Under the pieces are notes generated by a model, which was given only the letters and a program-made list of their open reading frames with translations, was not told the origin of the DNA and made no database searches. A program made the translations under genes and the position numbers. 64,000 bases of DNA from Candidatus Aenigmatarchaeota archaeon (GTDB taxonomy: Archaea > Aenigmatarchaeota > Aenigmatarchaeia > QMZP01 > QMZT01), in the NCBI GenBank assembly GCA_026397315.1, contig JAPLVC010000001.1, forward strand, positions 96,001 to 160,000, written 5' to 3'. Below are positions 5,686-64,000 of this stretch, piece by piece; within the stretch, counting starts at the first letter, position 1; each line of letters opens with the position of its first letter.

Positions 5686-5689
5686 TCGT

Positions 5690-6391
5690 TCACCTGTTAA
5701 TTTTTTGTTTTGGTTTTGAAACTCTTATCTTATTGGAATTATAATAGGCGCAAATCTTTTTCAGTTCGCATATCCCGCACTTCGGCTTTCGCGTGACGCA
5801 TATTTCCTTGCCGAAGCTGACGAGGCCTAGGTTCACGATGTACCGCCCGCTCTCAGGCACGAGCTTCTCAAGGTTAGCGCGGATTTCTTCGTATCTCGCA
5901 TTCGCCCGCGCGAAGCCGAGCCGCTTGGAGACGACGTCGACATGAACATCTACCGCAATCACAGGCACGCCATACCCATACGAAAGCACGATGTCCGCGG
6001 TCTTGGGCCCGACGCCGTAAAGCGACATCAGCGCCTCTCGCGTGCGCGGGAAGGAGTTTTTGTATTCTTTTTCGAGCGTCCTTGAAATCGCGATTATCTT
6101 TTTCGCCTTCTGGCGGAAGGGACCGGACTGCCGGATGAGCGACTCGAGTTTTGCGCGCCTGAGCTTCAGGATGTCCGCAGGCGTTTTGACCTTCGAGAAT
6201 AAACGTTCGCTGACGACTTCCGTCGTCTCGTCGAGCGCGCGCTGGGACAGCACGGTCGAGATGAGCAGGCGAAACAGGTCGTTGCGCTTCTTGAGAATCG
6301 ACATGTCGACTTCGCGGCCGTATTTTCTCTCAAGGTATGCGAGAACGATACGCATCTTTTGCCTGCATGCTTCTTCCGGCTTCTTGGCCAT
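5690..6391 (-). CDS. nth: endonuclease III (HhH-GPD, 4Fe-4S)
   Basis: LLISTVLSQ, LYGVGPKTA, AVDVHV, C-x6-C-x2-C-x5-C. Confidence 0.92.
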   Translation of the reverse strand: MAKKPEEACRQKMRIVLAYLERKYGREVDMSILKKRNDLFRLLISTVLSQRALDETTEVVSERLFSKVKTPADILKLRRAKLESLIRQSGPFRQKAKKIIAISRTLEKEYKNSFPRTREALMSLYGVGPKTADIVLSYGYGVPVIAVDVHVDVVSKRLGFARANARYEEIRANLEKLVPESGRYIVNLGLVSFGKEICVTRKPKCGICELKKICAYYNSNKIRVSKPKQKINR

Positions 6392-6438
6392 GTAGTTAAT
6401 ATTGGATTGGGATTTTAATTTTCACAGAATCTAGGAGT

Positions 6439-7209
6439 TTATTTTTTGGCCACTTCTTTCATGCTTTTGGACATGTGGTACATGCCGAAGCCTATCGTAA
6501 AGAATGCTATGGTGAATATGATGTCCACCCAGGATGCCGTGTAATATGCGCCTATGCTGGTGGTGTAAGAAAACGCGAAATCTGCCACGGCCTCTATTAT
6601 AAACCCTAGGCTGATTATGCCGAGCGACTTGAAAAGCATGCTGCCGTAGGTGATGGTCAGTATGGCTAAGGCAAATGACAGGAAAACCACGTCCCCAAGC
6701 GGATAAACGACGTTGAGTATTTTCGTGAGCATCGGTACTTCCTCGAAAAGTTTCTCATAAATGAAAATGGGGAATATGACCAAGAACACGAGCAACGGTG
6801 GTATTATGACTTTGGCGACTGTCTTGGCGTCCAGCTTGACTTTGACACTTTTCAGTAGAAGAAAAAGCCCGTACGCTGCAAATGGTATAGTTCCAAGATA
6901 TCCTATGTCCGCCAGGGAAGGATACGGGACCTCCGAGCCAGATATGTTGTAAAAGAACCACACGAGATTTCCCAGCCCCCAAGACAGCAGACCGATTGAG
7001 ATGTAAAAAAGCGACTTTCCGAATGCGCTTTTGAATGTGAAAGTCCTTGCGCTGTCGACGCCGACCCAGGTGCAAATGAACAGGATTATGGTCGTGTTCA
7101 GCAAAAGCAAATATCTTGTTAAAGCGGGGCTGTCCTGGGTCTGCAACATCATTCCTATAACGGTCAATACCGTCAGAATGGACAGCAAAAGTATCTTTTT
7201 TGGCATCAT
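6439..7209 (-). CDS. polytopic membrane protein resembling membrane sensor domains of signalling proteins
   Basis: About 7-8 TM helices; PYPSLADIGYL and VYPLGDVV motifs; no cytoplasmic output domain. Confidence 0.65.
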   Translation of the reverse strand: MMPKKILLLSILTVLTVIGMMLQTQDSPALTRYLLLLNTTIILFICTWVGVDSARTFTFKSAFGKSLFYISIGLLSWGLGNLVWFFYNISGSEVPYPSLADIGYLGTIPFAAYGLFLLLKSVKVKLDAKTVAKVIIPPLLVFLVIFPIFIYEKLFEEVPMLTKILNVVYPLGDVVFLSFALAILTITYGSMLFKSLGIISLGFIIEAVADFAFSYTTSIGAYYTASWVDIIFTIAFFTIGFGMYHMSKSMKEVAKK

Positions 7210-7286
7210 CTGTTATAAAATTTGGTTCCGCCTGAATATAAACTACGTTTAAACACGCAACGTCGCATCCGGCTATCCGTTTCGTC

Positions 7287-8489
7287 TCAGAAATCCCCTA
7301 GTCGCCGCTGTTTCAGGATGATGCTCTTCTTGACGTATTCTGCGACCGGCGTTCTCAGCCGCGGGCCGATGTAGGCCAGCGCTTCGCGGAGCGTCGCGAA
7401 CTTCGCCGGCTTCTGGCGGAGCGCGTTCCTCGTGTTTTCCAGACACTGCCACACGCCGACAGGGATGGTATAGCCTTCATGTATTTCGCGGAAGATGACA
7501 CAGCGCGCTTGCCGCCGCATTTTCTCGAGACCTTCGGCGAGGCCCAGTCGATTCGCATAGAACCCGCCGCCCTGTTCGCTGGCATATGTGGTGCGGCCTT
7601 TGTGGGGCTCGTATTCCTGGGTTATCTCGGGCGCTTTAAGACTCTGCGCCCAGTACGCGCCCGGAGACCAGCACTCGAAATTCTCGTATTCCCAGTTGCC
7701 GGGCATGAGCAGTATCTCGTAATGGTTGTCCAAGTATTCGCTGGAATAGACATGGTAATCGTTTATCGACGGGTAATCCTTGATGTTGCTGATGAGCTGG
7801 TTGGCAAGCATCGTATGCGTGGCTGTTATGCTCCAGCGCGTCGGCACCAGTTTCCGCCGGTCTTTCATTCCAAAGATGCCTGACGAGAGGATTGTTATGA
7901 GCTTGTATATGTCCGTGCCATGCGTGTAAAGCTCGTAGCTGGCTTCGACTGTCTTCATTTCATCGTTGATGATTTTCTCGACTTTCTGCGGCACCTTGGG
8001 GTTGCCAACGACCTTGAACTTGTCTATCGTCCCGGAAGGGCCCATGGGATGGGTGATGTCCGAGAACTCGAAGGACATCTTGGGCACGTTCTTGAACAGT
8101 ATTTCGACATCCGTCGGCTTCGATGCGAGAGCGAGCTCCTGGTTCTGCTCTATGAAGCGCGAGCGGGAGAAGACGTTTTCCCTGAACTGTGACCTGAGGA
8201 GCAGCGAGCGGAACTGGATTATGTCGCCATATGGCATGCCGAACCAGTTCTGGGGGGCGTCGGCAATCTCGGCCTTGCTCGCATCTAACGCGGCCATGGG
8301 CCCTACATACACGTCCGGGTAGAAATTATGGCCGACAAACACGGATGTGCTCGGACCGAAGAAGTCCTTCTTGAGCGAGGACTGGATTTGAGGAGCTAGC
8401 TTAATCTTGGAATATAACGGGCACGTGCGCCAGCCGCAGAGGTTGCGCGAGCCCTTGCACACGATGCATAGCCTGGCCGGAGAAGTCAT
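7287..8489 (-). CDS. nreA: Nre family archaeal DNA repair protein
   Basis: N-terminal CxxCKG..LCG..CP, RRKLVPTRWSITA, IPVGVWQ, C-terminal PIP box QRRLGDF. Confidence 0.93.
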   Translation of the reverse strand: MTSPARLCIVCKGSRNLCGWRTCPLYSKIKLAPQIQSSLKKDFFGPSTSVFVGHNFYPDVYVGPMAALDASKAEIADAPQNWFGMPYGDIIQFRSLLLRSQFRENVFSRSRFIEQNQELALASKPTDVEILFKNVPKMSFEFSDITHPMGPSGTIDKFKVVGNPKVPQKVEKIINDEMKTVEASYELYTHGTDIYKLITILSSGIFGMKDRRKLVPTRWSITATHTMLANQLISNIKDYPSINDYHVYSSEYLDNHYEILLMPGNWEYENFECWSPGAYWAQSLKAPEITQEYEPHKGRTTYASEQGGGFYANRLGLAEGLEKMRRQARCVIFREIHEGYTIPVGVWQCLENTRNALRQKPAKFATLREALAYIGPRLRTPVAEYVKKSIILKQRRLGDF

Positions 8490-8757
8490 ATGATTAATTA
8501 ATATAGTAAAAATTATAAGGCTTTCCGCCTCTCAAAAGGCCGTTTGTGCTGTCTGGATTGCTGCTCGGGCGCCTTATACTTAGAATAGGAAAAATAGGCA
8601 ACTTTAAATTGGAATAAAAAGGATTTATATGTATAACGGTCATATATAAGATTCTTTAAACGGTCCCGCAAAACACCACAAGCGGCCGGCAAAGCCATCC
8701 ATAATGTCGAATGATGTTCAAAAAGTCCTGACACGGACTGAAAAGAGGTATATGCTT

Positions 8758-9093
8758 ATGGAAAAGGACAAAAATATAGACGTATTGGAAGAAATCAAAA
8801 CCGCTGAAAAGGAAGCCAACAGGACGCTCGAGAAAGCACAGGAGCGCAAGAGCGAGATAATTCTTGAGATGCACAACAAGGCAAGGCAGATGGAAGAAAG
8901 AGAGATGGCCAGGATAAAGAGAGAGATGGAAGAGGCGATAAAGAGTTTTGATGCCAAGGCCGACAAGGACAGGGAACGTCTTCTGGCAGACAAGAAAAGC
9001 GAGACTGAGAGGCTCAAGAAATCCGCATCTTCCAAGGTCAGCAAGGCCGTGGAGAACATTAAGAAGGAATTAAACGCCTTCTTGGGAGAGTGA
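8758..9093 (+). CDS. atpH: A/V-type ATP synthase subunit H (peripheral stalk)
   Basis: Charged coiled coil (VLEEIKTAEKEA); first gene of the operon; SD GAGGT; start could also be 8752. Confidence 0.8.
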   Translation: MEKDKNIDVLEEIKTAEKEANRTLEKAQERKSEIILEMHNKARQMEEREMARIKREMEEAIKSFDAKADKDRERLLADKKSETERLKKSASSKVSKAVENIKKELNAFLGE

Positions 9094-10943
9094 AACTGAT
9101 GTTTTTTCCCAATGAGATGAAAAGGATAACGGTAGTTTCCCATAAAATACACCTCCAGGAAGCCGTAAAAGCGCTTTACGACGCCGGCGTCCTGCATCTC
9201 AAGGAATACGTGCCCAGCGAGGGCGATCACTACCCCATAGGAACGCCTATGGAGAACGCGGAGAAAATATCCGAGCTGCTGCTGATGCTCAATTCCATAA
9301 AGACCCAGGTCGACCTGAAAGCCGTGACGAAAACGAAAGCGGAGTTTGACCTGGAAAGGCATGAGAATTTACTCAGAAACTTCCAGGCCGATGTCAACAG
9401 GATCAACGAGGGCATAAAGCAGGCAGAAGATGCGCTGAAAGCCGGCGAGAGGCGCAGGGAAATACTCGAATTCCATTTGAAAGCGGGCGTGCAGAAATTC
9501 GATGCGCTGAAAGGCTACGACTCCCTGGACGTCCTGAACGGCTACGTGCCCGACATCGACGTGCTGAAAGTGAGGATGGCCAACGTGGAGCACGAACTCA
9601 TGGCAGGTGTGGAGAAGATGGCCGGCGGCTTCCCCGTAATAATTTTCGTCAAGAAAAGCGACATGGAAACGGCAAGACATGCGCTAGCGTCGGCGGAGTT
9701 CACCAGAGTCGACGTGGACATGGACTGGAGAACTGCAACGCCTCAGGAGGAGAGCGCCATTTTCACCAAGGAAAGGAATGCCCTGGTGAAGAAGGCTGAC
9801 GACCTCAGGAAAGAGCTGGCCGACTTGACGAAGGCGAAGGGCGGGGAGATTCTGGGAACGGAAGACGCCCTCACGACTGAGATACGCAAGTCGGAAGCGC
9901 CTCTCAAGTTCGCGGTAAGCAATCACAGCTTCATGATCCAGGGATGGGTTCCGAAAGGCAAGGAGTCCAGTCTGGAACAGAAGCTCGCGTCCATAACGGA
10001 CAACATGTATTTCTCCGCGGAGGACGTGGGCGAGGACGAGCCGGCTCCGATACAGCTCAAGAACAAGGGCCCGGTCAAGCCGTTCGAGTTCTTCCTGCGT
10101 TTGTATTCGCTTCCCAGCTACAAGGAAATGGACCCGACCTTTCTCATTTTCCTCACTTACCCCATCATCTTCGGCATAATGATGGGAGACATAGGCTACG
10201 GCCTGGTGCTGTTCCTGGGATTCGCGTTCATCAAATACAAGATGAAGAAGATGCGCTCTGTCGCTTCGGTGCTCATGATTTCATCGCTGTTCAGCATACT
10301 GTTCGGCTTCGTATTTGGAGAATTTTTCGGCTTCGAGGCGATAGGCGGGATAACGCTCCACCCGATGATAGCAAGGGCAGAAGGCCTGAACGCCATGCTG
10401 CCCGTATCCCTCATGATAGGCCTGGTGCACCTGAACTTGGGCATCACGACCGGCCTGATAAACGAGCTGCGCGAGCACAAGCTCAGGCATGCCATGGGCA
10501 AGGCCAGCTGGTTCATACTGGAGGCGGGCGGCATACTCTACCTGATGTCGACATTCTTGAAGATGGAGACCGGAGTCGACCCGAACCTTAGCCTCGGCAT
10601 ATTCCTTGTAGGAGTTGTTTTGTTAACCATAGGCGAGAGCTACCGCGGGCTGATAGAGATTCCAGCGCTCGCCAGCAACGTGCTTTCATACGCTCGTATA
10701 GCGGCGCTAGGGCTTGCCGGCGTGCAGCTGGCGCTGGTCATAAACGGCATGGCGGATGGCATGTTTCATGCGGGGGGAATGTTCATGGTGATGGGGGTCG
10801 CGCTGCTCTTCGCAGGCCATGCGGTGAACATGCTGCTGGCGCTCATGGGCTCGTTCCTGCAGTCGCTCAGGCTCCACTACGTGGAGATGTTTTCAAAGTT
10901 TTATCATGGTGACGGTGAACCTTACAAGCCGTTCGGAAGTTAA
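9090..10943 (+). CDS. atpI: A/V-type ATP synthase subunit I (a)
   Basis: EMDPT, FGIMMGDIGYG, SNVLSYARI, LRLHYVEMFSKFY; start may be ATG 9099. Confidence 0.96.
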   Translation: MKLMFFPNEMKRITVVSHKIHLQEAVKALYDAGVLHLKEYVPSEGDHYPIGTPMENAEKISELLLMLNSIKTQVDLKAVTKTKAEFDLERHENLLRNFQADVNRINEGIKQAEDALKAGERRREILEFHLKAGVQKFDALKGYDSLDVLNGYVPDIDVLKVRMANVEHELMAGVEKMAGGFPVIIFVKKSDMETARHALASAEFTRVDVDMDWRTATPQEESAIFTKERNALVKKADDLRKELADLTKAKGGEILGTEDALTTEIRKSEAPLKFAVSNHSFMIQGWVPKGKESSLEQKLASITDNMYFSAEDVGEDEPAPIQLKNKGPVKPFEFFLRLYSLPSYKEMDPTFLIFLTYPIIFGIMMGDIGYGLVLFLGFAFIKYKMKKMRSVASVLMISSLFSILFGFVFGEFFGFEAIGGITLHPMIARAEGLNAMLPVSLMIGLVHLNLGITTGLINELREHKLRHAMGKASWFILEAGGILYLMSTFLKMETGVDPNLSLGIFLVGVVLLTIGESYRGLIEIPALASNVLSYARIAALGLAGVQLALVINGMADGMFHAGGMFMVMGVALLFAGHAVNMLLALMGSFLQSLRLHYVEMFSKFYHGDGEPYKPFGS

Positions 10944-10958
10944 AATGGAGGTGTGAAT

Positions 10959-11180
10959 ATGTCTGATATAGCAGTAATCGCAGCAGCAGCGACGATATGC
11001 ATAAGTGCGATAGCGACGGCGTGGGCTGAAAAAGAGCTGGGAACGTCGGCGATAGGCGCCATGGCGGAGAAGGAAAGCCTTTTCGCCAAGGGTCTTATCA
11101 TTACGGTCATCCCGGAAACCATAATCATTTTCGGCCTGGTCGTGGCGTTGCAGATAATCGGCATGGCCGGAGGCGCGTAA
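10959..11180 (+). CDS. atpK: A-type ATP synthase subunit K (c), single hairpin
   Basis: Two TM helices, AEKELG...IPETIIIFG with the ion-binding Glu; SD GGAGGTG. Confidence 0.95.
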   Translation: MSDIAVIAAAATICISAIATAWAEKELGTSAIGAMAEKESLFAKGLIITVIPETIIIFGLVVALQIIGMAGGA

Positions 11181-11192
11181 AGGCGAATTGAT

Positions 11193-11756
11193 ATGAGTCT
11201 GAACAAAGTATCATCTGAAATACGGATGAAAGCGGATAAGGAAGCCCAGGGCATACTCGGCGAAGGCAGGAGAGAAGGGGACAAGACAATCGAGGCAACT
11301 AAAAAACGCCTGAAGGAATACGAGAATGCTATGAAAATCGAGATTGAGAACGCTTTAGGGCAGATAAACATGCGAAGCCAGGCCGTCATGAAAAAGCAGC
11401 TCAAAGAATTCGCCATGAACACCAAGAAGGAAATGGTGGAAATGGTTTACAATGAGTTTCTCGACTACCTGAAGAACATGAAGGGGGATGAGAGAACAAG
11501 AATTTACAGGAAGATGGCGGAAAGCACGAAAAGCCAGATAAGCAAACCGGGAGTCGTTTACGTAAGGAAAGACGATATCGCGCTCGTGAAGAAGCTGTTC
11601 AGAGGACTCGAAATCAGGACGCAGGAAATGGAAGGCGGCTTAATGCTGGAAAGCAGCGACGGCAAGGAATTGGTTGACTTCAGGTTCGAGACGCTCGTGG
11701 AATTGCTGAAGGGGCGCACGCTCAAAAGCGTATCAAGGATTATGTTCGGTGAATAA
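11193..11756 (+). CDS. atpE: A/V-type ATP synthase subunit E
   Basis: Operon position; N-terminal coiled coil; GGLMLESSDG..VDFRFE. Confidence 0.9.
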   Translation: MSLNKVSSEIRMKADKEAQGILGEGRREGDKTIEATKKRLKEYENAMKIEIENALGQINMRSQAVMKKQLKEFAMNTKKEMVEMVYNEFLDYLKNMKGDERTRIYRKMAESTKSQISKPGVVYVRKDDIALVKKLFRGLEIRTQEMEGGLMLESSDGKELVDFRFETLVELLKGRTLKSVSRIMFGE

Positions 11757-12962
11757 ATGAGAATACCTTTCAGGAGAAACCCGGAGGGAGCAAAAAAGAG
11801 AATAAAGAGGCTGAGGTTCAAGTCTTACCCTTACACGGTAACGAGGGTAAGGGTGATGAAGTCGAAGCTTCTCGGTGAGGAAGATTACCTCAGGATGAGG
11901 AAGATGGGCCTCAACGAAACGATACGCTTCCTCGAGGAAAGCGAATACAAGCACGAAATAGATTTGCACTCGAAGGAATACCGCGGCGCGGAGCTTATAG
12001 AGCTCGCGCTCAACGAGAATCTCGCCAACGTGATAAACAAGCTGCTTTCAATTTCGCTCCATGAAGAACTGAAAATGCTGATACAGTTCTACTCTCTGAA
12101 ATGGATACTGAACAACATAAAGCTCGTGCTCAGGACGCGCATGAACAAGCTGTCGGAGAGCGACCTGAAATACGGCGTGATCCCGATACAGCCGACGGAT
12201 TATGAGACGTGCATAAAGCTCTACCGCGGCGGAGGAGACGAGTTCATTGAAACGCTGAGCGGCATAACGAGCATAGAGCCGCACAGGCTCAGGGAACTTT
12301 ATGCAGCGAATGACCTGGTCGGGCTGGAGAATGAGATTGACCTGACGTTCTACAACCGCATGATAGAATTGTACAAGAGGATAAAGATGAGGCGATCCGA
12401 CCCTCTGAAGCAGTTCTTCGACAACATCGTCCAGCTCAACAACCTGCGCAACATAGCGAGGTTCAAGAATGAGGGCATAAACGAGGAGACCATACGCAGC
12501 ATGCTGGTCATGGAGCACAAGAGCAAGATCACGGTAAAGACCTCGGTAATATTGATGAAGATGATGAGGTTCAGGGTCAGGCTGATCAAATTCAGGTTCA
12601 AGAAAAGCAAAAGGGAAGACAAGCTCATAGAGGCCATGATAAAGGCCGAGGACATGAAAGCGCTCTTCGATGCGCTGAAAAAAAGCAGGTACAAAGAGCT
12701 CGTCACGCCGGACGTCGAAAAGAACCCGTCGAGGCTCGAAGGGACGATAGACAAGTTCCTGCTGAACTACGCGACGAAGCTTCTGCACAGGAAACCGCTT
12801 TCGGTTTCGCCGATATTCGGTTACCTGCTATGGAAGGAGATAGAGACGAAAAACATCAAGCTGCTCGTCCACGCTAAGGCGATGAATCTCGATGAAAACG
12901 TCGTGGACACCAATCTCATAGTGGTTAATGATTCATGGATGAAGGTGATGAAGCACGCATGA
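11757..12962 (+). CDS. atpC: A/V-type ATP synthase subunit C
   Basis: YPYTVTRVRVMKSKLL, PIFGYLLWKEIETKNIK; carries basic insertions. Confidence 0.92.
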   Translation: MRIPFRRNPEGAKKRIKRLRFKSYPYTVTRVRVMKSKLLGEEDYLRMRKMGLNETIRFLEESEYKHEIDLHSKEYRGAELIELALNENLANVINKLLSISLHEELKMLIQFYSLKWILNNIKLVLRTRMNKLSESDLKYGVIPIQPTDYETCIKLYRGGGDEFIETLSGITSIEPHRLRELYAANDLVGLENEIDLTFYNRMIELYKRIKMRRSDPLKQFFDNIVQLNNLRNIARFKNEGINEETIRSMLVMEHKSKITVKTSVILMKMMRFRVRLIKFRFKKSKREDKLIEAMIKAEDMKALFDALKKSRYKELVTPDVEKNPSRLEGTIDKFLLNYATKLLHRKPLSVSPIFGYLLWKEIETKNIKLLVHAKAMNLDENVVDTNLIVVNDSWMKVMKHA

Positions 12963-12972
12963 AATAGCCGTA

Positions 12973-13269
12973 ATGGGAAGCGAATACTTCACCCTGGGTT
13001 TCCAGGCAGCCGGCGTACGCAACGCGTTCGTCGTGACCAGGGAGACGATAAACAGGAAGTTCGAGGCAGTCATGGAGAGCAAGGACATCGGCATCCTGAT
13101 AATGAACAACGACGATTTCCAGATGCTGCACGAGCGCTCGAAAGAACGCGCATTGGTCCAGGTCAAGCCGACCGTCGTCATACTCTCTCACGACATCTCC
13201 GCGGAGGAGAATCTCCGCATCATGATCAGAAGATCTCTAGGCGTAGATCTTTGGAATAAGAAAGATTGA
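12973..13269 (+). CDS. atpF: A/V-type ATP synthase subunit F
   Basis: FTLGFQAAGV, DIGILI, LRIMIRRSLGVDLW; conserved N-terminal residues (EIAV) are in frame upstream of the ATG (see findings). Confidence 0.92.
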   Translation: MGSEYFTLGFQAAGVRNAFVVTRETINRKFEAVMESKDIGILIMNNDDFQMLHERSKERALVQVKPTVVILSHDISAEENLRIMIRRSLGVDLWNKKD

Positions 13270-13286
13270 AAGGTTAGGTGATATTG

Positions 13287-15050
13287 ATGAAAGGAAAAAC
13301 AGACGCTAGTGCGAAAGGCAGGATTTTCAGGGTATCCGGACCCGTTGTTATAGCTGAGGGCATAGACGCCAGGATGCACGACCTCATGCGCGTCGGCAAA
13401 GAGCAGCTCATGGGCGAGGTCATCCAGATAAATCCGGACAAGATTACCATTCAGGTTTACGAGGACACGTCCGGCATAAAGCCGGATGAGCCCGTCGAGA
13501 ACACGGGCCAGCCGCTTATAGCGGAACTTGGCCCAGGCCTGCTCACGAGCATTTACGACGGCATACAGCGACCGCTTCCCGTGCTTCAGAGCATGATGGG
13601 CGACTACATATTGAGAGGCGCGAAGACGCCGGGCCTTGACAGGAAGAAGAAATGGCATTTCAAGCCGGTCGTCAAGAAAGGCGAGGACGTCAAGGAAGGC
13701 CAGATAATCGGCACCGTCAAGGAAACGAACGTCATCGAACACAAGGTCATGGTGCCTCCTGGCGTCTCTGGCAAGATAAAGGCCATAGAGGAAGGCGACT
13801 TCACCGTCGAAGAAACGGTAGCATCGCTAGCGAACGGCAGGAAGCTGACGATGATGCAGATATGGCCCATTCGCAAGTCGCGCCCGTGCAAGGAAAAGCT
13901 CACTCCAGAAATTCCGCTCATAACAGGTCAGCGCATTCTCGATGCACTGTTCCCGCTCGCGAAAGGCGGTGCAGGCGGCATACCGGGTCCGTTCGGTTCC
14001 GGAAAGACGGTCACGCAGCAGCAGCTTGCGAAATGGTCGGACGCTGATATTGTCGTATACATCGGGTGCGGAGAGCGAGGCAACGAAATGACCGAAGTCC
14101 TCAAGGACTTCCCGAAACTCATAGACCCGAAAACGAACAGGCCGCTCATGGAGAGAACCGTTCTTATCGCGAACACGTCGAACATGCCCGTCGCCGCTAG
14201 GGAAGCTTCCATTTACACTGGCATAACCATCGCTGAATACTACAGGGACATGGGCTACGACGTCGCGCTTATGGCTGATTCGACGAGCCGATGGGCCGAA
14301 GCGATGAGAGAGATCTCGTCACGTCTGGAAGAGATGCCGGGAGAGGAAGGATACCCGGCGTACCTGTCCGCGAGGCTCGCGGAATTCTACGAGCGCGCGG
14401 GAAGGGTGAAGCCGCTTGGCGTGGCCAAGATAGGCTCGGTCAGCATCATCGGCGCGGTATCGCCGCCCGGAGGCGACCTTTCCGAACCCGTGACGCAGTC
14501 GACGCTGCGCGTCGTGAAGACGTTCTGGGCACTGGATGCGAAGCTCGCGCACAGGCGACATTTCCCGTCGATTAACTGGCTCAATTCGTATTCGCTTTAC
14601 GAGACCATACTTGAGCCGTGGTACACGAAGAACGTGGCCGCCGACTGGAAAAGCACAGTCAACGAGTGCAAGAAAATCCTCCAGGAAGAGGACAAGCTGC
14701 AGGAAATCGTGCAGCTGGTCGGTTCCGACGCTTTGCCGGAGAACGAGCAGCTAACGCTCGAAATCGCCAGGATGATACGCGAGTTCTTCCTGCAGCAGAG
14801 CGCTTATCACGAGGTCGACACGTTCTGCGACCTGAGGAAGAGCTACAAGATGATGAAATCCATCCTGCACTACGCCGACAAGGCGAGATACGCGCTGAAG
14901 GCTGGCGTGCACGTCAGGAATCTTCTCGAGATAAAGGCCAGGAACAGGATCGCTGACGCTAAATTCGAGAAGAATCACGAGAAAATACTTTCAGATGCCG
15001 AGCAGGCGATAGACAAGGAAATAGAGTCGCTGCTCATGGAGATCAAGTAG
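13287..15050 (+). CDS. atpA: A/V-type ATP synthase subunit A
   Basis: GPFGSGKT P-loop, [29 protein letters not shown]; no intein. Confidence 0.98.
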
Positions 15051-56913: not shown

Positions 56914-58659
56914 TTAATTTTTCTTATTTTTTATAATATTGCTAGTCTTGTAATCGCCCAGTTTTTCCCTGATTCTCACAATTTTACACACAATGCCATC
57001 TTCAGCCAGAAGCTTCGCTAGCGCTTTCTCGTCAGCCTTCTGGTCATGGCCCAGCGCTATGATATCCGGCATAGCCCACATTATCGTTTTTAAATAACTG
57101 CTTTCTTCTTTGCCCAAAAATGCACCGTCAACATAAGATATTTCTTCCATGACGGCCAATCGTTGCTTTTCCTCGTTAATAGGTAATCTTCCCTTAAAAT
57201 TTTTTGCAGTTTGATCTCTGGCTATTATGACTATCAACAAATCTCCCAATAATTTGGCGGATTTAAGCAAATGTAAATGTCCTGGATGTACTATATCAAA
57301 AACTCCTCCAGTAAGAACAACCTTGAATTTCATCCTACCTTTCTCATTTAGTGAATATTTTCCTGGGAGAAAACCAATTAATGACGATCTTCCTCGACTG
57401 CCTAAAAAAACTCTATCGCTCATCTTATTTACAAGACCTTCACGTAGGAGTTTGCTAACTATCCTTGCCGTTCTAGTATATGTTCTTTGACATTTTAAAG
57501 ATAATTCGGGTATTGTGAAAAAACCATATCTGAGTTCTAAAAGGTATGCTTTTTTTAAAAATTCAACAGAAGCTTTACTGTTAGGAAATTGATATTGTTG
57601 ATAGGAAGATAAAGCAACTTTTAATTTTTCCTTTTTATATTTCAAATCAGAACCAATTTTGGTTTCAAATTTAATAAGCTCACTTCTGTTGTCTATGTTT
57701 ATTTGCCAAACGCTAGAATCTGATTTGATTCCTTTGAACTTGGGTCCCACATATTCTATTCCGACTTTATCCAAAAGTTTGCAATCGCCCAACAGCAGAG
57801 GGGGTGGGGTTTTTTTGTCCCTGTTTACCAATCTTAATACAATTGACCGATGTTTCTTTTTTTGATTAAAATAAACAGAACCATCATCGTCAAAACATCT
57901 TCTAATAAAAGTCGTCAAAAATTTTTCATCGTTACCGAAAACAAAATTCGGAATATTCTGTTTATGTTTTTTCAAGTCCCTTTTAAACAAGCAAAGTGTT
58001 ACTAATGCAATAATCGCAGGTAATTTTATTGTATGGTTTGTTAAACTTTTATTCCAACCACCTTTAGGTTCTTCGATTTGACCAAAAATATTAAAAGCAG
58101 CATCCAAGAAGCTTTTTCTCATTAGAAATGCCTCTTTTTCATCACTTGCTTTTTTCTTCGTGTAGGCTGTGAAATTTTCATTTAAAAAGCCATCATGCAT
58201 GATTGAAGAGATATATAGAGCGCCATTATTTGTATTGAAATTGAAAGGTAGTTTGGGATTCAAAATGCTTTTCCTATAAGTTCCTTTGGGTGTTGTTAAT
58301 TCAAGAATATCTTGGTTCTTGATCAATTTAAAATTGTTAATATAATAAAGTATTTTTATCAAAAGAGACAATTTAATAAACTTTCCTTTATCTAGATTGT
58401 ATAAGGCAGGGCAGTATCTTTGTCTTATCTTCTCTCCCAAAAACCTGCCAAACTCTGTCAGATTTTTAAAACCTCCCGTTTTTAAGGATAGAAAAATTAG
58501 CTCACGCCCCTTTTTTTCTGTTAATCTTAAGCTGGTTGAAGGGTGCAAATTCCACAAAAATACAATTCCGGTATTTGGTGGTTTATTGAAAAAATCTTGA
58601 GATAACAATTTTTCATTGAAATTCTCAAACGCTTCTTTTAAAAAATCAATTTCAACCAT
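56914..58659 (-). CDS. ribL: LAGLIDADG + wHTH protein fused in frame to FAD synthase RibL
   Basis: YISSIMHDG and FIRRCFDDDG helices; C-terminal 139 aa (ATG 57333) with GGVFDIVHPGH, ARD, PDIIALGHDQ, KTSNI. Confidence 0.85.
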   Translation of the reverse strand: MVEIDFLKEAFENFNEKLLSQDFFNKPPNTGIVFLWNLHPSTSLRLTEKKGRELIFLSLKTGGFKNLTEFGRFLGEKIRQRYCPALYNLDKGKFIKLSLLIKILYYINNFKLIKNQDILELTTPKGTYRKSILNPKLPFNFNTNNGALYISSIMHDGFLNENFTAYTKKKASDEKEAFLMRKSFLDAAFNIFGQIEEPKGGWNKSLTNHTIKLPAIIALVTLCLFKRDLKKHKQNIPNFVFGNDEKFLTTFIRRCFDDDGSVYFNQKKKHRSIVLRLVNRDKKTPPPLLLGDCKLLDKVGIEYVGPKFKGIKSDSSVWQINIDNRSELIKFETKIGSDLKYKKEKLKVALSSYQQYQFPNSKASVEFLKKAYLLELRYGFFTIPELSLKCQRTYTRTARIVSKLLREGLVNKMSDRVFLGSRGRSSLIGFLPGKYSLNEKGRMKFKVVLTGGVFDIVHPGHLHLLKSAKLLGDLLIVIIARDQTAKNFKGRLPINEEKQRLAVMEEISYVDGAFLGKEESSYLKTIMWAMPDIIALGHDQKADEKALAKLLAEDGIVCKIVRIREKLGDYKTSNIIKNKKN

Positions 58660-58742
58660 ATATAATATTATATTGAATTTAGATATTTAAAACTTGGCAA
58701 GCAAATATTATCAAGTAATAATTTATAATGGTGGTAGATGAG

Positions 58743-58919
58743 TTACTTCTTAAGGCTCATCGCATCGACGGGGCAGAAGTTCACGCAGGCAGCGCAGTTC
58801 ACGCATCTCTTCGCGTCGCATTCTATGCCGTGCTCAGTGAGGTCCAGCGCGAGCTTCGGGCAGACCGCCACGCATCCGCCGCATCGAAGGCACTTGTTCT
58901 TGTCCGTTAACGCAACCAT
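58743..58919 (-). CDS. 2[4Fe-4S] ferredoxin
   Basis: CLRCGGCVAVCP and CVNCAACVNFCP. Confidence 0.95.
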   Translation of the reverse strand: MVALTDKNKCLRCGGCVAVCPKLALDLTEHGIECDAKRCVNCAACVNFCPVDAMSLKK

Positions 58920-59031
58920 AAACATCACCCATTTAGACAGAAGCAGATGCAATCTGCTTCATTCGCTTAATAGGTTATTTTTTAAACTGCGAGCTTAAAT
59001 ATTTGAAATAACCAGTGCAAAAGGTGACGTC

Positions 59032-59964
59032 ATGGCAGAGGGTTACGGTTTCGGCAAAATCATTTTGTTCGGCGAGCATTTCGTCGTCTACGGCCTGCCC
59101 GCGATAGCTTCGGCCATAGGGGATAAAACCATCGCCACAGTCGAGACGTCGAAAAAATTCGAACTGGTCGACAAGCGGCCAGCGACAGACGGATACAAGG
59201 TGACCAAGAAAGACGAGATGGACCGCTCGATGAAGCTCATACTCGACTTCATGAAAATCAATCCCGTCAAAACGCCGGTCAAAATCACGCTGTCAGGCAA
59301 CCTCTTCTGCACGAGCGGCATAGGGGCGAGCGCCGCGATGGCGACATCGATTGCCCGCGCCTTTTCAGAACATTTCAACCTCAGTCTCAATGACGAACAG
59401 GTGAACAGGATTTCATACGAAGGAGAGAAAGGTTCGGCAGGCACGCCTTCGGGCATCGATAACACCTGCGCGACTTTCGGTGGCCTGTTATGGTTCGAGA
59501 AGAACCTGAAAGGCGGCGAGAACAGGATGGAGCTGATAAAGGCGAAGAAGCCGATAGAAATCGTGCTTGGCAACACCGGCATATCGCAGGAGACGAAGCT
59601 CGTCGTCGAGGACGTAAAAAAAGCGAGAGAAGCGGACCCGAAGCGATACGAACGCATATTCAGCGATTACATGAAGCTTGTGAAAGAGGCGAGAGGCGTT
59701 ATCGAGCGAGGAGACATCAAAAGGCTCGGCGCGCTTATGGACGAGAACCACCGTCTGCTGAAGGAAATGGGTCTTTCGTGCGTCCAGGCTGAAGATATAA
59801 TAAGCGTCGCCAAGGCGAACGGCGCGGCTGGCGCGAAGATAACAGGCACCGGCCGCGGCGGTTATGTGATACTGCTCACGCCGGGAAAAGCGGTTCAGGA
59901 CAAAGTGGCGAAAGCGATAGAGACGAAGGGTTACAAGACGCTCAAGACGGAAATCGGCGTTTAA
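59032..59964 (+). CDS. mvk: mevalonate kinase
   Basis: GKIILFGEHFVVYG, SGIGASAA, GTPSGIDN, GAKITGTGRGG. Confidence 0.95.
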   Translation: MAEGYGFGKIILFGEHFVVYGLPAIASAIGDKTIATVETSKKFELVDKRPATDGYKVTKKDEMDRSMKLILDFMKINPVKTPVKITLSGNLFCTSGIGASAAMATSIARAFSEHFNLSLNDEQVNRISYEGEKGSAGTPSGIDNTCATFGGLLWFEKNLKGGENRMELIKAKKPIEIVLGNTGISQETKLVVEDVKKAREADPKRYERIFSDYMKLVKEARGVIERGDIKRLGALMDENHRLLKEMGLSCVQAEDIISVAKANGAAGAKITGTGRGGYVILLTPGKAVQDKVAKAIETKGYKTLKTEIGV

Positions 59965-60065
59965 TATTCGACGATTGGCGTCTTTCAACAATTTAAAATA
60001 AGAACCCAATTTTTCTATTAAGAATATTGAATATCAAACGGTTGAAAGAGTTCAGGGTGATTTTG

Positions 60066-61346
60066 ATGAACATGAGGGAATTCGTCGATTTGCTGGACAA
60101 GAAGGGATTGCTTGTAAAAGTCAGCAAGCCAGTCGATACCAAATACGAGATTTCGACCATAGTCAAGATGCTAGCGGGAAAGCCCGTGCTTTTCGAGCAC
60201 GTCAAAGGTCATGACATGCCGGTCGTATCGAATGTCTGCTCGACGCGCGACCTCGTCTGTCTCGGCCTCGATATCGACAAGAAGGACCTCATAGCGAAGC
60301 TCACGCATGCGATCGAGAACCCGGCGGAGCCGACGAAGAAAGTGTCGCACGAATATCACGAGCTGGAATGCGATTTGCACAAGCTTCCGATTCTGACTTA
60401 CTATCCAAAGGACGGCGGGCCGTACATTGCGTCCGGCATCGCTATCGCCAGGGACGCAGAACACGGCACGAACGCTTCTTACCATAGGGCCATGATTCTC
60501 GGCAAGGACAGGATGGTGCTTCGCATTCTCGAACGCCACCTGAACGAGTACAAGAAGCGCGGGCTCAAGGAATTCGCCTTCTGCATAGGCAATCCCACGA
60601 CCGTTCTGATTGGGGCTGCGATTTCGGCTGAACTTGGAAAAAACGAGCTTGCGATAGCGAACGCGCTGCATGAGACGCATACCATCGAACTGAACGGGCA
60701 TATTGTCCCTGAGAGCGAGATAGTGATGATATGCGAGTTCACTGGCGAGCTCGCCGAGGAGGGGCCGTTCCTCGACCTGACCGAGACTTTCGACATAGTC
60801 AGAAAACAGTCTGTGGTGCGCGTCAAGAAAATCTACGCGAAGAAAAACGCGCTCTTCCACGCGCTGCTTCCCGGTGATTTAGAACACAAGATTCTCATGG
60901 GTATGCCGAGAGAGCCGACGATATTCCGCGAGGTGAACAAGGTCTGCGACTGCCGCGACGTTTACATCACGCCCGGCGGATGCTCATGGCTGCACGGAGC
61001 GGTCAAGATTCACAAGAAGCACGACGATGACGGGCGCAAGGCGATAGAAGCCGCGTTCAAGGGTCACGCTTCGATGAAGCACGTTTTCGTCGTCGACGAC
61101 GACATAAACATTGAAGAGCCGAAGGAAATTGAGTGGGCGCTAGCGACGCGTTTCCAGGGTGACAAGGACATGATAGTCAGAACGAAAGAGAAAGGCTCGT
61201 CCCTCGATCCTTCGTCTGACATGGCGACGCGCGAGACGACTAAAGTCGGCTTCGACCTTACAAAGCCGCTCGTCTCGAAGGGCAAGGATTTCAGCAGACC
61301 CGAGCTGCCCATGAAAATAAATCTTGAAGATTACTTGGTGGAGTAG
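60066..61346 (+). CDS. ubiD: UbiD-family prFMN decarboxylase, probable anhydromevalonate phosphate decarboxylase
   Basis: DGGPYI, SYHR, EGPFLD, GGCSWLH, VVDDDI, EWALATR, GSSLDPS; operon with mvk and AcnX. Confidence 0.92.
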   Translation: MNMREFVDLLDKKGLLVKVSKPVDTKYEISTIVKMLAGKPVLFEHVKGHDMPVVSNVCSTRDLVCLGLDIDKKDLIAKLTHAIENPAEPTKKVSHEYHELECDLHKLPILTYYPKDGGPYIASGIAIARDAEHGTNASYHRAMILGKDRMVLRILERHLNEYKKRGLKEFAFCIGNPTTVLIGAAISAELGKNELAIANALHETHTIELNGHIVPESEIVMICEFTGELAEEGPFLDLTETFDIVRKQSVVRVKKIYAKKNALFHALLPGDLEHKILMGMPREPTIFREVNKVCDCRDVYITPGGCSWLHGAVKIHKKHDDDGRKAIEAAFKGHASMKHVFVVDDDINIEEPKEIEWALATRFQGDKDMIVRTKEKGSSLDPSSDMATRETTKVGFDLTKPLVSKGKDFSRPELPMKINLEDYLVE

Positions 61347-61673
61347 ATGCGCATGCTAACTGCAGGAAAGGGCAAATACAAAGTATGGCTGAAAGAAGCG
61401 AGGCAGGGGAAGGACTTGGTGCTCTTTCTCGGCGGCGGCGAGAGGACACATATAGGATCAGTCGTCGTGTGCGCTCCAGGGAAACCAGCGAAAGTCATCA
61501 ACAGGAAAGGCCATTACGATTGGATGGTCGCCATGCCCATAGCGGAGAAAAAGAGCAGAAAGACAAAGAAGGCGGTCGTGTGCATAGCCGGGATTCACGT
61601 TAACAATGCTAGCAAAAAAGAGATAGAGATTCTCAAAAAGAACTGTAAAAAAATAGAGGATTATATTAGATGA
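61347..61673 (+). CDS. LpdD-like prenylated-flavin chaperone
   Basis: GKDLVLFLGGG..HIGSV, GHYD, VVCIAGIHVNNA..EI motifs; starts immediately after the ubiD stop. Confidence 0.7.
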   Translation: MRMLTAGKGKYKVWLKEARQGKDLVLFLGGGERTHIGSVVVCAPGKPAKVINRKGHYDWMVAMPIAEKKSRKTKKAVVCIAGIHVNNASKKEIEILKKNCKKIEDYIR

Positions 61674-62260
61674 GTCTTATGAAGCGGAACAAGTGGTATA
61701 AAATTTTACTCAAGGAAGCCGAAATGTATTTGAAAAAAGCACCAAAAGTTTCGCCAGTGCACAAATCCGATCACCTGAAAAGGGTCTGGAAGAGGTCGGA
61801 GATCCTGTGCAAGAGTCTGAACTGCGATCCTGATGTCATGGTTGCGGCATGCCTTCTTCATGATCTTGGAAGGCATCACGGGCTCGAAATACACGGAAGG
61901 AAATCAGCCGAACTCGCAAAGCCCATACTTGAAAGGCATAACTTTCCCAGGGACAAAATACCCAAAGTCCTGGATGCGATAGCTCAGCATGACTATAATT
62001 TTCCGCCTGCCGAAAGAAAATCAATAGAGTCCAAGATTCTTTACGATGCCGACAAAATGGACGCTTTCGGAACAGTGGGCATTTACAGGCACTTGCTATT
62101 CATTGAGGCGGGCAGGATAAGGATGAACGAGGTCATTCCACTGCTAGAAAAAAGATGGACTGGTTTAACGCTGATTGAAAGCAGAAAAATCGCAAAGGAG
62201 GATTACGAATACACAGTTAACTTTTTTAAAAGCTTGCAAAAAGAATTGAAGGAGGCATGA
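61670..62260 (+). CDS. HD-domain phosphohydrolase
   Basis: HKSDH..RV, LLHDLG, AQH, LYDADKMDA. Confidence 0.9.
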   Translation: MSLMKRNKWYKILLKEAEMYLKKAPKVSPVHKSDHLKRVWKRSEILCKSLNCDPDVMVAACLLHDLGRHHGLEIHGRKSAELAKPILERHNFPRDKIPKVLDAIAQHDYNFPPAERKSIESKILYDADKMDAFGTVGIYRHLLFIEAGRIRMNEVIPLLEKRWTGLTLIESRKIAKEDYEYTVNFFKSLQKELKEA

Positions 62261-62263
62261 ATT

Positions 62264-63445
62264 ATGTATCTCACTAAAGAACAGGAGAATATGCTTAATG
62301 GCGGGCACGGCGAAGTCGTCGAAAGGCAAATGCGGCTGCTTGTGCGGCTCGGCGAAATATACAAGGCCGACAAGATGATAGACGTCGGCTCCGTGCAGGT
62401 CGCCGGCGTTTCATACAAGTCGATAGGCGACCCGGGTCTCGAGTTCCTCGAGGATATTGCTCACAAAGGAGCGAAGGTCAAGGTCCTGACTTTTTTGAAT
62501 CCCGCGGGTATGGACATGGAGAACTGGAGGGAAATAGGCTTCCCCGAAAGCTTCGCGACGATGCAGAAGAAGGTTATGGACGCGTTCGAGCAGATGGGCA
62601 TCGTCATGTCAGCGACATGCACGCCATATCTCGCCGGCAACCTGCCTCGCTTCCGCGAGCACATCGCATGGTCCGAGAGCTCGGCTGTTTCATTTTCCAA
62701 TTCAGTAATTGGTGCAAGGACGAACCGTGAAGGCGGACCGTCCGCACTGGCGGCTGCGATATGCGGCTTCACTCCGAACTACGGCCTGCACCTCGACGAG
62801 AACAGGAAGCCCCACATGCTCGTGAAAGTCGACGCGAAGCTGGAATACAACTCGGATTTCGGCGCGCTCGGCTACCACGTAGGCAAGATCGCCGGCAGCA
62901 AGATTCCTTATTTCACCGGCATAAAGAACGCGAACACCGACAATCTCAAAGCGCTCGGCGCTGCGATGGCGGCCAGCGGGGCTGTCGCTCTCTATCATGC
63001 GGAAGGTCTTACGCCAGAAGCGAGCACGATGGAAACGAAAGGCCTCGAGATCATAGAGGTCGGCGAGAAGGAGCTGAAAGAAGCGTATGCGAAACTCAAC
63101 ACGGGCAAGGACCCGGACCTCGTCGTCGTGGGATGCCCGCACGCATCGCTCAGGGAGATAATAACAATCGCGAAAAAAATCGATGGCAAGCACCTGAAAA
63201 AGCCGTTCTGGATATGCACCTCGCGCGTCATGAAGGACGCTGCGACGCGCATGGGCCTGACGGCAACGATAGAGAAAGCAGGCGGAAAAATCGTGGCTGA
63301 TACGTGCATGGTCGTCTCGCCCATCGAGGAAATGGGCTTCAAGACGACCGGAGTCGACTCTGGAAAAGCGGGAAACTATCTTCCCGGCTTCTGCAAGCAG
63401 AGCGTCGTGTTCAAGAACATAGACGATCTGATAAAATCCGGATGA
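62264..63445 (+). CDS. aconitase X large subunit, probable phosphomevalonate dehydratase
   Basis: GVSYKSIG, CTPY, WSESSA..NS..GARTNRE, GCPH, DTCMVV (three Cys ligands). Confidence 0.93.
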   Translation: MYLTKEQENMLNGGHGEVVERQMRLLVRLGEIYKADKMIDVGSVQVAGVSYKSIGDPGLEFLEDIAHKGAKVKVLTFLNPAGMDMENWREIGFPESFATMQKKVMDAFEQMGIVMSATCTPYLAGNLPRFREHIAWSESSAVSFSNSVIGARTNREGGPSALAAAICGFTPNYGLHLDENRKPHMLVKVDAKLEYNSDFGALGYHVGKIAGSKIPYFTGIKNANTDNLKALGAAMAASGAVALYHAEGLTPEASTMETKGLEIIEVGEKELKEAYAKLNTGKDPDLVVVGCPHASLREIITIAKKIDGKHLKKPFWICTSRVMKDAATRMGLTATIEKAGGKIVADTCMVVSPIEEMGFKTTGVDSGKAGNYLPGFCKQSVVFKNIDDLIKSG

Positions 63446-63494
63446 CGACTTGAATTTATGTTCAAGGTCGTCTTTCGAAGGAAATGGTGATGTC

Positions 63495-63893
63495 ATGACG
63501 AAAGAAGTTATGAAAGGAAGAAGCATTTCGCCTGGGAAAGCGGAAGGCGAAGCGATAGTTTCGAAGACGCCGCTCGGATTCTACGGCGGCATCGATGCAA
63601 AAACGGGCATCGTCATCGAGAAGGGTCATGAGCTTGAGGGAAAGAACGTCAAAGATAAGATTCTCGTTTTCCCCACAGGCAAGGGCTCGACGGTCGGCTC
63701 TTACGTCATATATGGACTGAAAAAGAACGGCGTCGCTCCCAAGGCGATAATCAACAAGGAGACGGAAACCATCGTCGCTACGGGCGTGATTCTCGCCGAC
63801 ATACCGTGCGTCGACCAGATAGACATAGAGAAGCTGAACACGGGCGACAGGCTGAAAGTCGACGCAACGAAGGGAACGGTAGAGCATGCGTGA
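63495..63893 (+). CDS. aconitase X small (swiveling, DUF126) subunit
   Basis: GGIDAKTG, KILVFPTGKGSTVGSY, IVATGVIL. Confidence 0.93.
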   Translation: MTKEVMKGRSISPGKAEGEAIVSKTPLGFYGGIDAKTGIVIEKGHELEGKNVKDKILVFPTGKGSTVGSYVIYGLKKNGVAPKAIINKETETIVATGVILADIPCVDQIDIEKLNTGDRLKVDATKGTVEHA

Positions 63894-64000
63894 CGCTTCA
63901 GAAAAGGAAAGAATCATAGTCGGCATTTCAGGCAGTTCATGCGCCATCCTTGGCGTGCGCTTTCTCGAGGTCGCAAAAAAGCTCGGCTTGGAGACGCATC
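63886..64000 (+). CDS. ubiX: UbiX flavin prenyltransferase (5' part, runs off the window)
   Basis: MRDASEKERIIVGISGSSCAILGVRFLEV..ETH matches the UbiX N-terminus; operon context. Confidence 0.85.
   Translation, partial: MRDASEKERIIVGISGSSCAILGVRFLEVAKKLGLETH

Follow-up and report, generated by a model that had tools for sequence, protein, structure and literature searches.

What do two additional genes do between the decarboxylase and the dehydratase of an archaeal mevalonate operon? The question is raised by the end of a stretch of 64,000 nucleotides (the window, G000:C3:96001-160000), where the first genes of a nine-gene operon are found on the + strand, starting at 59032. The source genome, G000, has 1.05 Mb in 7 contigs and is 91% complete. 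Judging from its sequence, the operon encodes the lower part of the anhydromevalonate phosphate route, the archaeal version of the mevalonate pathway, in a DPANN archaeon which is probably an Aenigmatarchaeote. One of the additional genes codes for a protein of the LpdD family, a probable chaperone for a cofactor, prenylated flavin mononucleotide (prFMN; prFMNH2 in its reduced form). The other codes for an HD-domain protein, a putative phosphohydrolase. The explanation that we consider best for the whole, a lower mevalonate operon which includes accessory genes for prFMN, is held tentatively, with somewhat less than even confidence. What we say about the function of the LpdD and HD proteins is based on homology and gene order.

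The operon and its pathway

The genes follow each other as MVK-UbiD-LpdD-HD-AcnXL-AcnXS-UbiX-IPK-IDI2, and the strand switches after IDI2. UbiX is truncated at the window end, and IPK and IDI2 lie wholly outside. The rest of UbiX, IPK and IDI2 are found in locus L002, which is the same contig read on past the window edge. The genes are listed here with lengths in amino acids (aa) and scores against the cut-offs of each model:

59032..59964, + strand: mevalonate kinase (MVK), 310 aa, first operon gene; TIGR00549, 231.5 bits, cut-off 163; GHMP kinase N and C domains
60027..61346, + strand: UbiD-family decarboxylase, 439 aa; TIGR00148, 316.6 bits, cut-off 244.85; PF01977, PF20695, PF20696
61347..61673, + strand: LpdD-family protein, 108 aa (106 aa from the ATG at 61353); PF21758, E 3.8e-24
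61670..62260, + strand: HD-domain phosphohydrolase (predicted), 196 aa (193 aa from the ATG at 61679); PF01966, E 3e-14
62264..63445, + strand: AcnX large subunit (AcnX-L), 393 aa; PF04412, E 1e-162; PDB 7cnr, E 7e-115
63450..63893, + strand: AcnX small (swivel) subunit (AcnX-S), 147 aa; PF01989, E 5e-35; NF003046, 186 bits, cut-off 163
63886..64000, + strand: UbiX flavin prenyltransferase, first 38 codons or so; full gene L002:4887-5459; PF02441, E 6e-42; TIGR00421, 243 bits, cut-off 108.9
L002:5450-6274, + strand: isopentenyl phosphate kinase (IPK); NF040647, 201.6 bits, cut-off 120
L002:6271-7293, + strand: type-2 isopentenyl diphosphate (IPP) isomerase (IDI2); TIGR02151, 404.9 bits, cut-off 281.3

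All the genes named in a first-pass annotation of the window are present on this strand where they had been placed, but UbiX is cut by the window edge, with only about 38 codons inside. The tight junctions which had been described from ubiD to acnX are also found. The UbiD stop codon, TAG, is directly followed by an ATG, the HD start shares an ATGA with the LpdD stop, and the HD stop lies 3 nt ahead of the AcnX-L ATG, with a GGAGG upstream. The UbiX start overlaps the AcnX-S stop as well. Other gene callers choose ATGs 2 or 3 codons further in (105 and 193 aa), which shifts the gaps by a few bases only. An AT-rich, TATA-like stretch and the sequence GGTGA are found upstream of MVK.

The proposal that these genes code for a modified mevalonate route holds well: each pathway enzyme beats its curated NCBIfam or Pfam cut-off. 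The best solved relative of the AcnX large subunit is 7cnr, which is of the heterodimeric DUF521/AcnX type and not of the 579-residue proline-dehydratase type. Type-II AcnX is reported to be mevalonate 5-phosphate dehydratase (PMC8184944). All nine operon genes are single-copy in G000, and no second UbiD is found there. More than 60 related loci have UbiD flanked by MVK and AcnX, and this gene context leads us to assign the UbiD-family protein as the putative anhydromevalonate phosphate decarboxylase.

Family membership and conserved gene order show the following roles. MVK forms mevalonate 5-phosphate, which AcnX dehydrates. The UbiD enzyme would decarboxylate the product to isopentenyl phosphate, which is phosphorylated by IPK, and IDI2 isomerises the resulting compound. 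UbiX makes prFMNH2. A search of G000 with Pfam hidden Markov models (HMM) and tblastn found no HMG-CoA (3-hydroxy-3-methylglutaryl-CoA) reductase. A gap in the assembly is the probable cause, rather than mevalonate scavenging, since three of three same-genus genomes carry the enzyme and G000 is only 91% complete.

The enzymes of the operon do not share the same affinities. The AcnX large subunit (62264-63893 compared with L089-L119) is 69-78% identical to Thermoplasmatota and 44-53% to most other DPANN, while MVK and UbiX are closest to DPANN; the history of the operon is therefore mosaic and rich in transfers. L084, on a 1.1-Mb contig, belongs to the nearest of the near-complete relatives. 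Both UbiD and IDI2 are broken over 2-3 frames there (6660-8000 and 11714-12746), which reflects either sequencing indels or gene decay.

The LpdD-like protein

The first additional gene had been described as LpdD-like, with a match to the LpdD HMM named beforehand as the check, and HMM, fold and metal ligands all agree with this description. PF21758, which bears the name "bacterial proteasome assembling chaperone-like" (LpdD / PAC_bac), is matched over residues 8-103 with 85 bits, for a cut-off of 27 (E 3.8e-24). By sequence, the protein also matches the LpdD chains 8p4w, 8pzh and 8po5 (E 0.004). Its AlphaFold2 model has a pLDDT of 93.7, and the six best Foldseek matches of this model in the PDB are all LpdD chains (TM 0.82-0.84, E 1e-7), followed by PAC3 and PAC4 (TM 0.5-0.6). 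LpdD has a Pba3/4-like fold, a beta-sandwich with two helices, and binds Mn through H35, H61 and D63; the H35A mutant loses prFMNH2 binding under the conditions used (PMC10865409). These three ligands align with H35, H56 and D58 in our protein. All of 14 archaeal homologues keep H35 and H56; at position 58, 12 of them have D and the other 2 have E.

Gene context gives the same indication. Taking one genome per species, we have found 41 archaeal loci which encode a relative, and it is directly downstream of UbiD in all 41. As elsewhere in this work, these are mostly metagenome-assembled genomes (MAGs), with labels which include Aenigmatarchaeota, Thermoplasmatota, Thermococci and Methanomicrobia, and related genomes are non-independent samples. 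The LpdD-like gene is usually just upstream of AcnX where the contig continues, and MVK is usually upstream of UbiD. Several Thermoplasmatota loci have a gap of about 1.2 kb between LpdD and AcnX. We considered whether it hides another accessory gene and rejected this, as the gap corresponds to an opposite-strand TruD gene.

HMM match, fold, metal ligands and gene context thus make the 61347 protein a true member of the LpdD family, which we consider established as far as sequence, modelled fold and context allow. By analogy, it probably binds the prFMNH2 made by UbiX and hands it to the decarboxylase. It would be the chaperone of this enzyme, as LpdD is for bacterial UbiD enzymes. One genome of the same genus speaks against a general need: in G186, UbiD abuts AcnX and both the LpdD and the HD gene are absent, therefore LpdD is not required. 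In literature searches, no publication was found that reports LpdD from archaea or assigns it to the mevalonate pathway. The family is published; its archaeal mevalonate context is unpublished as far as searched. When 14 named control genomes were searched, only Methanosarcina acetivorans, a genetically tractable archaeon, gave a PF21758 match.

The HD protein and its possible substrates

The second additional gene codes for a protein with an HD domain (PF01966, 53.7 bits, cut-off 22), which matches no Nudix family in HMM searches. Its relatives by sequence are 2pq7 (E 6e-11), YedJ (E 1e-10) and YpgQ (E 8e-6), with Lin1889 and 3djb also near. It is not an orthologue of YedJ (NF007515, 57.5 bits, equivalog cut-off 286). 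The AlphaFold2 model has a pLDDT of 94.6, and its top 13 Foldseek matches correspond to YpgQ, 2pq7, 3djb, 2pjq, YedJ, 3b57, 3dto and 2qgs (TM 0.65-0.76), with YpgQ, 2pq7 and 3djb at the top (TM 0.68-0.76); the fold is that of small, all-helical HD proteins like YpgQ. In the alignment, the Mn ligands of YpgQ (H29, H58, D59 and D124) correspond to H35, H64, D65 and D128, which are invariant in the clade. H75 and H107 are also invariant; they are present in 2pq7 and absent from YpgQ. The six residues form an H..HD..H..H..D pattern, which is taken as diagnostic of a dinuclear metal site (PMC8177086). Sequence and model thus suggest a metal-dependent phosphohydrolase of the YpgQ/YedJ/2pq7 group, putatively cleaving a phosphoanhydride bond. 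The sole member of this group with a measured activity is YpgQ, a weak Mn-dependent (d)NTP pyrophosphohydrolase (kcat/KM 91-281 per M per s, PMC8177086). No fusions of the HD protein with longer proteins were found, which is weak evidence. A profile search of 1.8 billion representatives gave fusions only in distant paralogues, with Nudix, thymidylate kinase, nucleotide pyrophosphatase, YjbR and major facilitator superfamily (MFS) domains.

The HD gene is a recurrent companion of UbiD and UbiX; the lack of such a link, which would have counted against the first-pass annotation, is not observed. The closest homologues of both the LpdD-like and the HD protein are labelled Aenigmatarchaeota, Iainarchaeota/Diapherotrites and Altiarchaeota. 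In clade A, to which the HD protein belongs (48-67% identical), 15 of 16 species-representative loci hold the gene inside a UbiD/AcnX/UbiX operon, in the order UbiD, HD, AcnX-L or between AcnX-L and AcnX-S (L015, L016) or after UbiX (L017). The same operon arrangement is found in L033, where only the 3' end of HD is present. Our trees come from a quick maximum-likelihood search with SH-aLRT support only. In them the 16 clade A sequences group together, with a Syntrophorhabdales clade as their sister, and the sequences of clade B and of G118 lie on long branches.

Two further clades lead to the same neighbourhood. A second HD clade, 31-33% identical and separated by starred branches, occupies the same slot between UbiD and AcnX-L in six genomes of another genus. 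In a small archaeal class labelled Methanocellales, 3 of 4 genomes have a third HD clade in an HD-LpdD-UbiX-UbiD cluster near geranylgeranylglyceryl phosphate (GGGP) synthase. A very divergent HD gene is also found just upstream of MVK in one genome with UbiD. We have searched 201 sampled genomes of the phylum for orthologues (strict when above 280 bits) and, in a second survey, have taken a UbiD locus from most of the 47 which contain UbiD. A strict orthologue is present in 5 of the 201, all of them among these 47, and an intermediate relative is found in a further genome. In 19 other phylum members, no mevalonate genes adjoin the paralogous HD genes, with the exception of G118. UbiD or UbiX thus has HD neighbours from at least three separate clades. 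The link recurs, and chance can hardly explain three independent recruitments.

In the Methanocellales-labelled MAGs (1.3-1.9 Mb; L043:9941-12821, L151, L152), GGGP synthase, DUF131, NAD kinase and a gene similar to nucleoside deoxyribosyltransferase lie upstream of the cluster. One of these MAGs contains two near-identical copies of the cluster, one of which lacks LpdD.

What would such an enzyme cleave? From sequence and context, a C5 prenyl phosphate is our leading guess, although we would not give it even chances. More specifically, the enzyme might convert dimethylallyl diphosphate (DMAPP), the product of IDI2, to dimethylallyl phosphate (DMAP), which would then be the prenyl donor of UbiX. 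DMAP is the one metabolite which joins the isoprenoid precursors to UbiX. This step, taken by itself, is rather unlikely. It is suggested by the following: the family cleaves phosphoanhydrides and the Mn ligands of YpgQ are kept, one HD clade sits with LpdD, UbiX and UbiD alone, and G000 has no IDI1-like Nudix gene. The sole Nudix gene of G000 was considered as an isoprenoid enzyme and rejected: it adjoins a cysteine desulfurase, resembles ADP-ribose or NAD diphosphatases and has no isoprenoid tie.

Several observations weigh against a dedicated role of this kind. The first concerns the history of the gene. The window aligns with its closest relative, L083 (87% identity), over 58743-61648 and 62252-64000, and the 603 bp in between (61649-62251, the HD gene and the last LpdD codons) are replaced by 40 bp in L083, with the same break in L084. 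The operon proteins of these nearest relatives are 85-95% identical, and no HD orthologue is found in either genome, nor in four other genomes of the genus searched. The gene has a GC content of 43.8% (51% in third codon positions, GC3), compared with 53-56% (GC3 70-72%) in MVK, UbiD and AcnX-L. The HD gene was therefore acquired recently, and it can be dispensed with, as the nearest relatives do without it. The insertion lands precisely in the slot between UbiD/LpdD and AcnX-L in the source lineage, which by itself counts in favour of the proposed role. One strict orthologue, L010, is outside the operon, on a different contig from UbiD and UbiX. The Syntrophorhabdales sister clade has no conserved neighbours in 13 loci surveyed, and UbiD is within 10 kb in only 1. 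Syntrophorhabdales are anaerobes known for degrading aromatic compounds. As the closest bacterial HD relatives they were considered as a guide to the role, and they were set aside for want of a conserved neighbour in these loci.

The second observation concerns Nudix genes. Methanosarcina mazei reportedly has an IPP/DMAPP-specific Nudix hydrolase, which NF041653 (Nud_hyd_Meth) may model, and the first-pass annotation suggested that the HD enzyme might be its non-homologous replacement. In this form the idea lacks support. Among clade A operons with enough flank, 5 of 11 also carry an IDI1-like Nudix gene, often adjoining UbiX, therefore the two are not alternatives. The recent insertion of a dispensable gene and the context of G118, described below, also argue against a replacement. 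IDI1-like or YfcD-like Nudix genes are common in DPANN mevalonate operons; they adjoin UbiX in L008, L009, L172 and L173, and IPK or IDI2 elsewhere:

L008:7643-8140: IDI1-like/YfcD-like Nudix gene
L009:7067-7585: IDI1-like/YfcD-like Nudix gene
L172:1226-1810, - strand: IDI1-like/YfcD-like Nudix gene
L173:10446-11027: IDI1-like/YfcD-like Nudix gene
L168:11089-11700: IDI1-like/YfcD-like Nudix gene
L016:11803-12336: IDI1-like/YfcD-like Nudix gene

Their matches to the IDI models and to NF041653 are all below cut-off. Several have no Cys at the position of the catalytic cysteine of IDI1 (as in E. coli Idi), and so they may hydrolyse prenyl diphosphates instead of isomerising them. Some may nevertheless be isomerases, so that the presence of both HD and Nudix genes weakens the DMAPP-to-DMAP idea without refuting it.

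The third observation is that other genes share the slot or the company of HD. HAD_2 phosphatases occupy the position between UbiD and AcnX-L in three other DPANN operons, in one of them (L014) in tandem with an HD gene, and a methyltransferase dependent on S-adenosylmethionine (SAM) is found there in another. We read the slot after UbiD as a variable accessory region, in which HD is one of several small hydrolases selected. The next outgroup of clade A (42% identical) is in G118, a 92%-complete DPANN genome in which neither UbiD nor UbiX was found. Its gene belongs to a classical HMGR-GHMP-MDD-GHMP cluster, with HMG-CoA reductase (HMGR) and a protein similar to mevalonate diphosphate decarboxylase (MDD), back to back with a Nudix gene, IDI2 and a polyprenyl synthase:

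L163:6011-6664, - strand: HAD_2 phosphatase in the UbiD/AcnX-L slot
L167:1771-2424, + strand: HAD_2 phosphatase in the UbiD/AcnX-L slot
L014:8335-9015, + strand: HAD_2 phosphatase in the UbiD/AcnX-L slot
L171:6219-6869, - strand: SAM-dependent methyltransferase in the UbiD/AcnX-L slot
L130 (G118:C81:22000-39000), genes 5629-14509: two HMGR-like genes, GHMP kinase, MDD-like decarboxylase, second GHMP kinase, HD

A different class of substrates is indicated by the family itself, as the fusions to Nudix, thymidylate kinase and nucleotide pyrophosphatase domains and the activity of YpgQ point to nucleotides. The HD enzyme could thus act on flavin or other nucleotides, for example splitting flavin adenine dinucleotide (FAD) to FMN and AMP and so feeding UbiX and IDI2, or clearing aberrant nucleotides. 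The sole characterised relative is a (d)NTP pyrophosphohydrolase (PMC8177086), and most of the loci surveyed have FMN-dependent UbiX or IDI2 within about 10 kb of HD. The UbiD-less cluster of G118 is among them, with IDI2 about 0.5 kb from HD on the opposite strand. The position of the HD gene, however, tracks UbiD and not IDI2. YpgQ is weak on nucleotides, so they may not be the true substrates of the family. G000 also has a CTP-dependent riboflavin kinase, so FMN can come directly from riboflavin, which lowers the appeal of a FAD-to-FMN role without removing it. On balance this explanation is doubtful.

We grant a similarly low standing to a pathway valve or regulator, which would hydrolyse IPP, isopentenyl phosphate or mevalonate phosphate against toxic build-up or for pool balance, with no special tie to prFMN. 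The G118 relative, in its classical cluster, is what such a role would lead us to expect. So are the HAD phosphatases in the same slot, with one operon containing both types, and the dispensable, patchy HD gene. The third HD clade does not agree with it, since no other mevalonate gene adjoins its HD-LpdD-UbiX-UbiD cluster, and hydrolysis of IPP to isopentenyl phosphate beside IPK would be a futile cycle.

It is very unlikely that the gene is a neutral passenger, a housekeeping hydrolase in a tolerant intergenic slot with no functional tie to the operon. Recent insertion, a lower GC content and absence from close relatives are in keeping with a passenger, and the slot also hosts unrelated genes (the SAM methyltransferase, and the opposite-strand TruD in Thermoplasmatota). 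But three separate HD clades have arrived beside UbiD/UbiX, and the operon has kept the gene in 15 of 16 clade A members across deep divergence (43-67% identity). Equally hard to sustain is a di-metal redox enzyme which, like bacterial PhdC, would mature or repair prFMN, for example by oxidising prFMNH2 or its radical form: the six invariant residues form a putative dinuclear-site pattern (PMC8177086), the gene comes directly after UbiD and LpdD, and dedicated bacterial prFMN maturases exist (PMC13040415), yet there is no oxygenase among the closest structural relatives and the G118 protein has no UbiD to serve.

The idea of a DMAPP-to-DMAP step can also be stated more widely. Unrelated small phosphohydrolases (two or three HD clades, HAD and IDI1-like Nudix) may have been repeatedly recruited beside UbiD and UbiX for this dedicated step. 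The HD enzyme would then be a new, non-Nudix prenyl-diphosphate phosphohydrolase, which together with LpdD would complete a self-contained module for prFMN supply and delivery. This wider form is unlikely as a whole. As far as searched, the following are new: the presence of HD in mevalonate/prFMN operons, its three separate recruitments, and its recent insertion at a precise place. Literature searches found no publication linking an HD domain with UbiX and DMAP.

Surroundings of the operon and comparison with known systems

On the upstream side, a 581-aa protein (56914-58659, - strand) points away from the operon, in a stretch with 35% GC (57000-59000) compared with about 52% around it. The C-terminal 130 residues of the protein, the sole part recognised, are cytidylyl/adenylyltransferase-like; the N-terminal 440 residues have no match. 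Downstream of the operon (L002:8671-16604), there are a 1207-aa protein consisting almost entirely of PAS domains, a 7TM-Cache-HAMP sensor, a solute-binding protein and a HAMP histidine kinase. This is a large signalling content for a 1-Mb genome.

The archaeal mevalonate route costs one ATP less per isoprene unit and is being introduced into production strains, where its weak point is the activation of the prFMN-dependent decarboxylase. Operons with a putative prFMNH2 chaperone, and possibly with a hydrolase for the prenyl donor or the cofactor, name genes which could be added to such strains and indicate steps missing from the published scheme. The LpdD-like protein makes it testable whether chaperone-assisted loading of prFMN is common in archaeal lipid synthesis. 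The HD protein offers a physiological context for a widespread subfamily which has eight solved structures and no convincing substrate. The interest of the locus is in these testable accessory steps for prFMN-dependent isoprenoid synthesis, it does not represent a new type of system.

The closest known system is the archaeal mevalonate pathway via trans-anhydromevalonate 5-phosphate, described in Aeropyrum pernix and Methanosarcina mazei, which has the same enzyme set (MVK, AcnX, UbiD-type decarboxylase, UbiX and IPK). Unlike the scheme for these species, the source genome has all the lower-pathway genes in one operon, and LpdD and HD are absent from the published archaeal scheme as far as searched.

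For the LpdD-like protein, the comparison is with LpdD of Lactiplantibacillus plantarum (8PO5, 8PZO, 8PZH, 8P4W), the prFMNH2-binding chaperone of gallate decarboxylase LpdC (PMC10865409). PF21758, the fold, the three Mn ligands, a GIHV motif and the adjacency to UbiD and UbiX are shared. The archaeal protein is 22-23% identical and about 20 residues shorter. Its gene follows that of UbiD, whereas in L. plantarum LpdD follows UbiX, and its putative partner is an aliphatic decarboxylase of central lipid metabolism instead of an aromatic acid decarboxylase.

The HD protein shares the fold (TM 0.66-0.76), the H/HD/D ligands and a similar size with YpgQ of Bacillus subtilis (5DQV), 2PQ7 and YedJ (3GW7), with 20-26% identity. 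The context of its gene is isoprenoid and prFMN metabolism, not nucleotide metabolism. It belongs to a superfamily unrelated to the M. mazei Nudix hydrolase, and any likeness between both would be functional and is only proposed. In summary, the pathway and the chaperone family are known, the putative accessory HD hydrolase is new.

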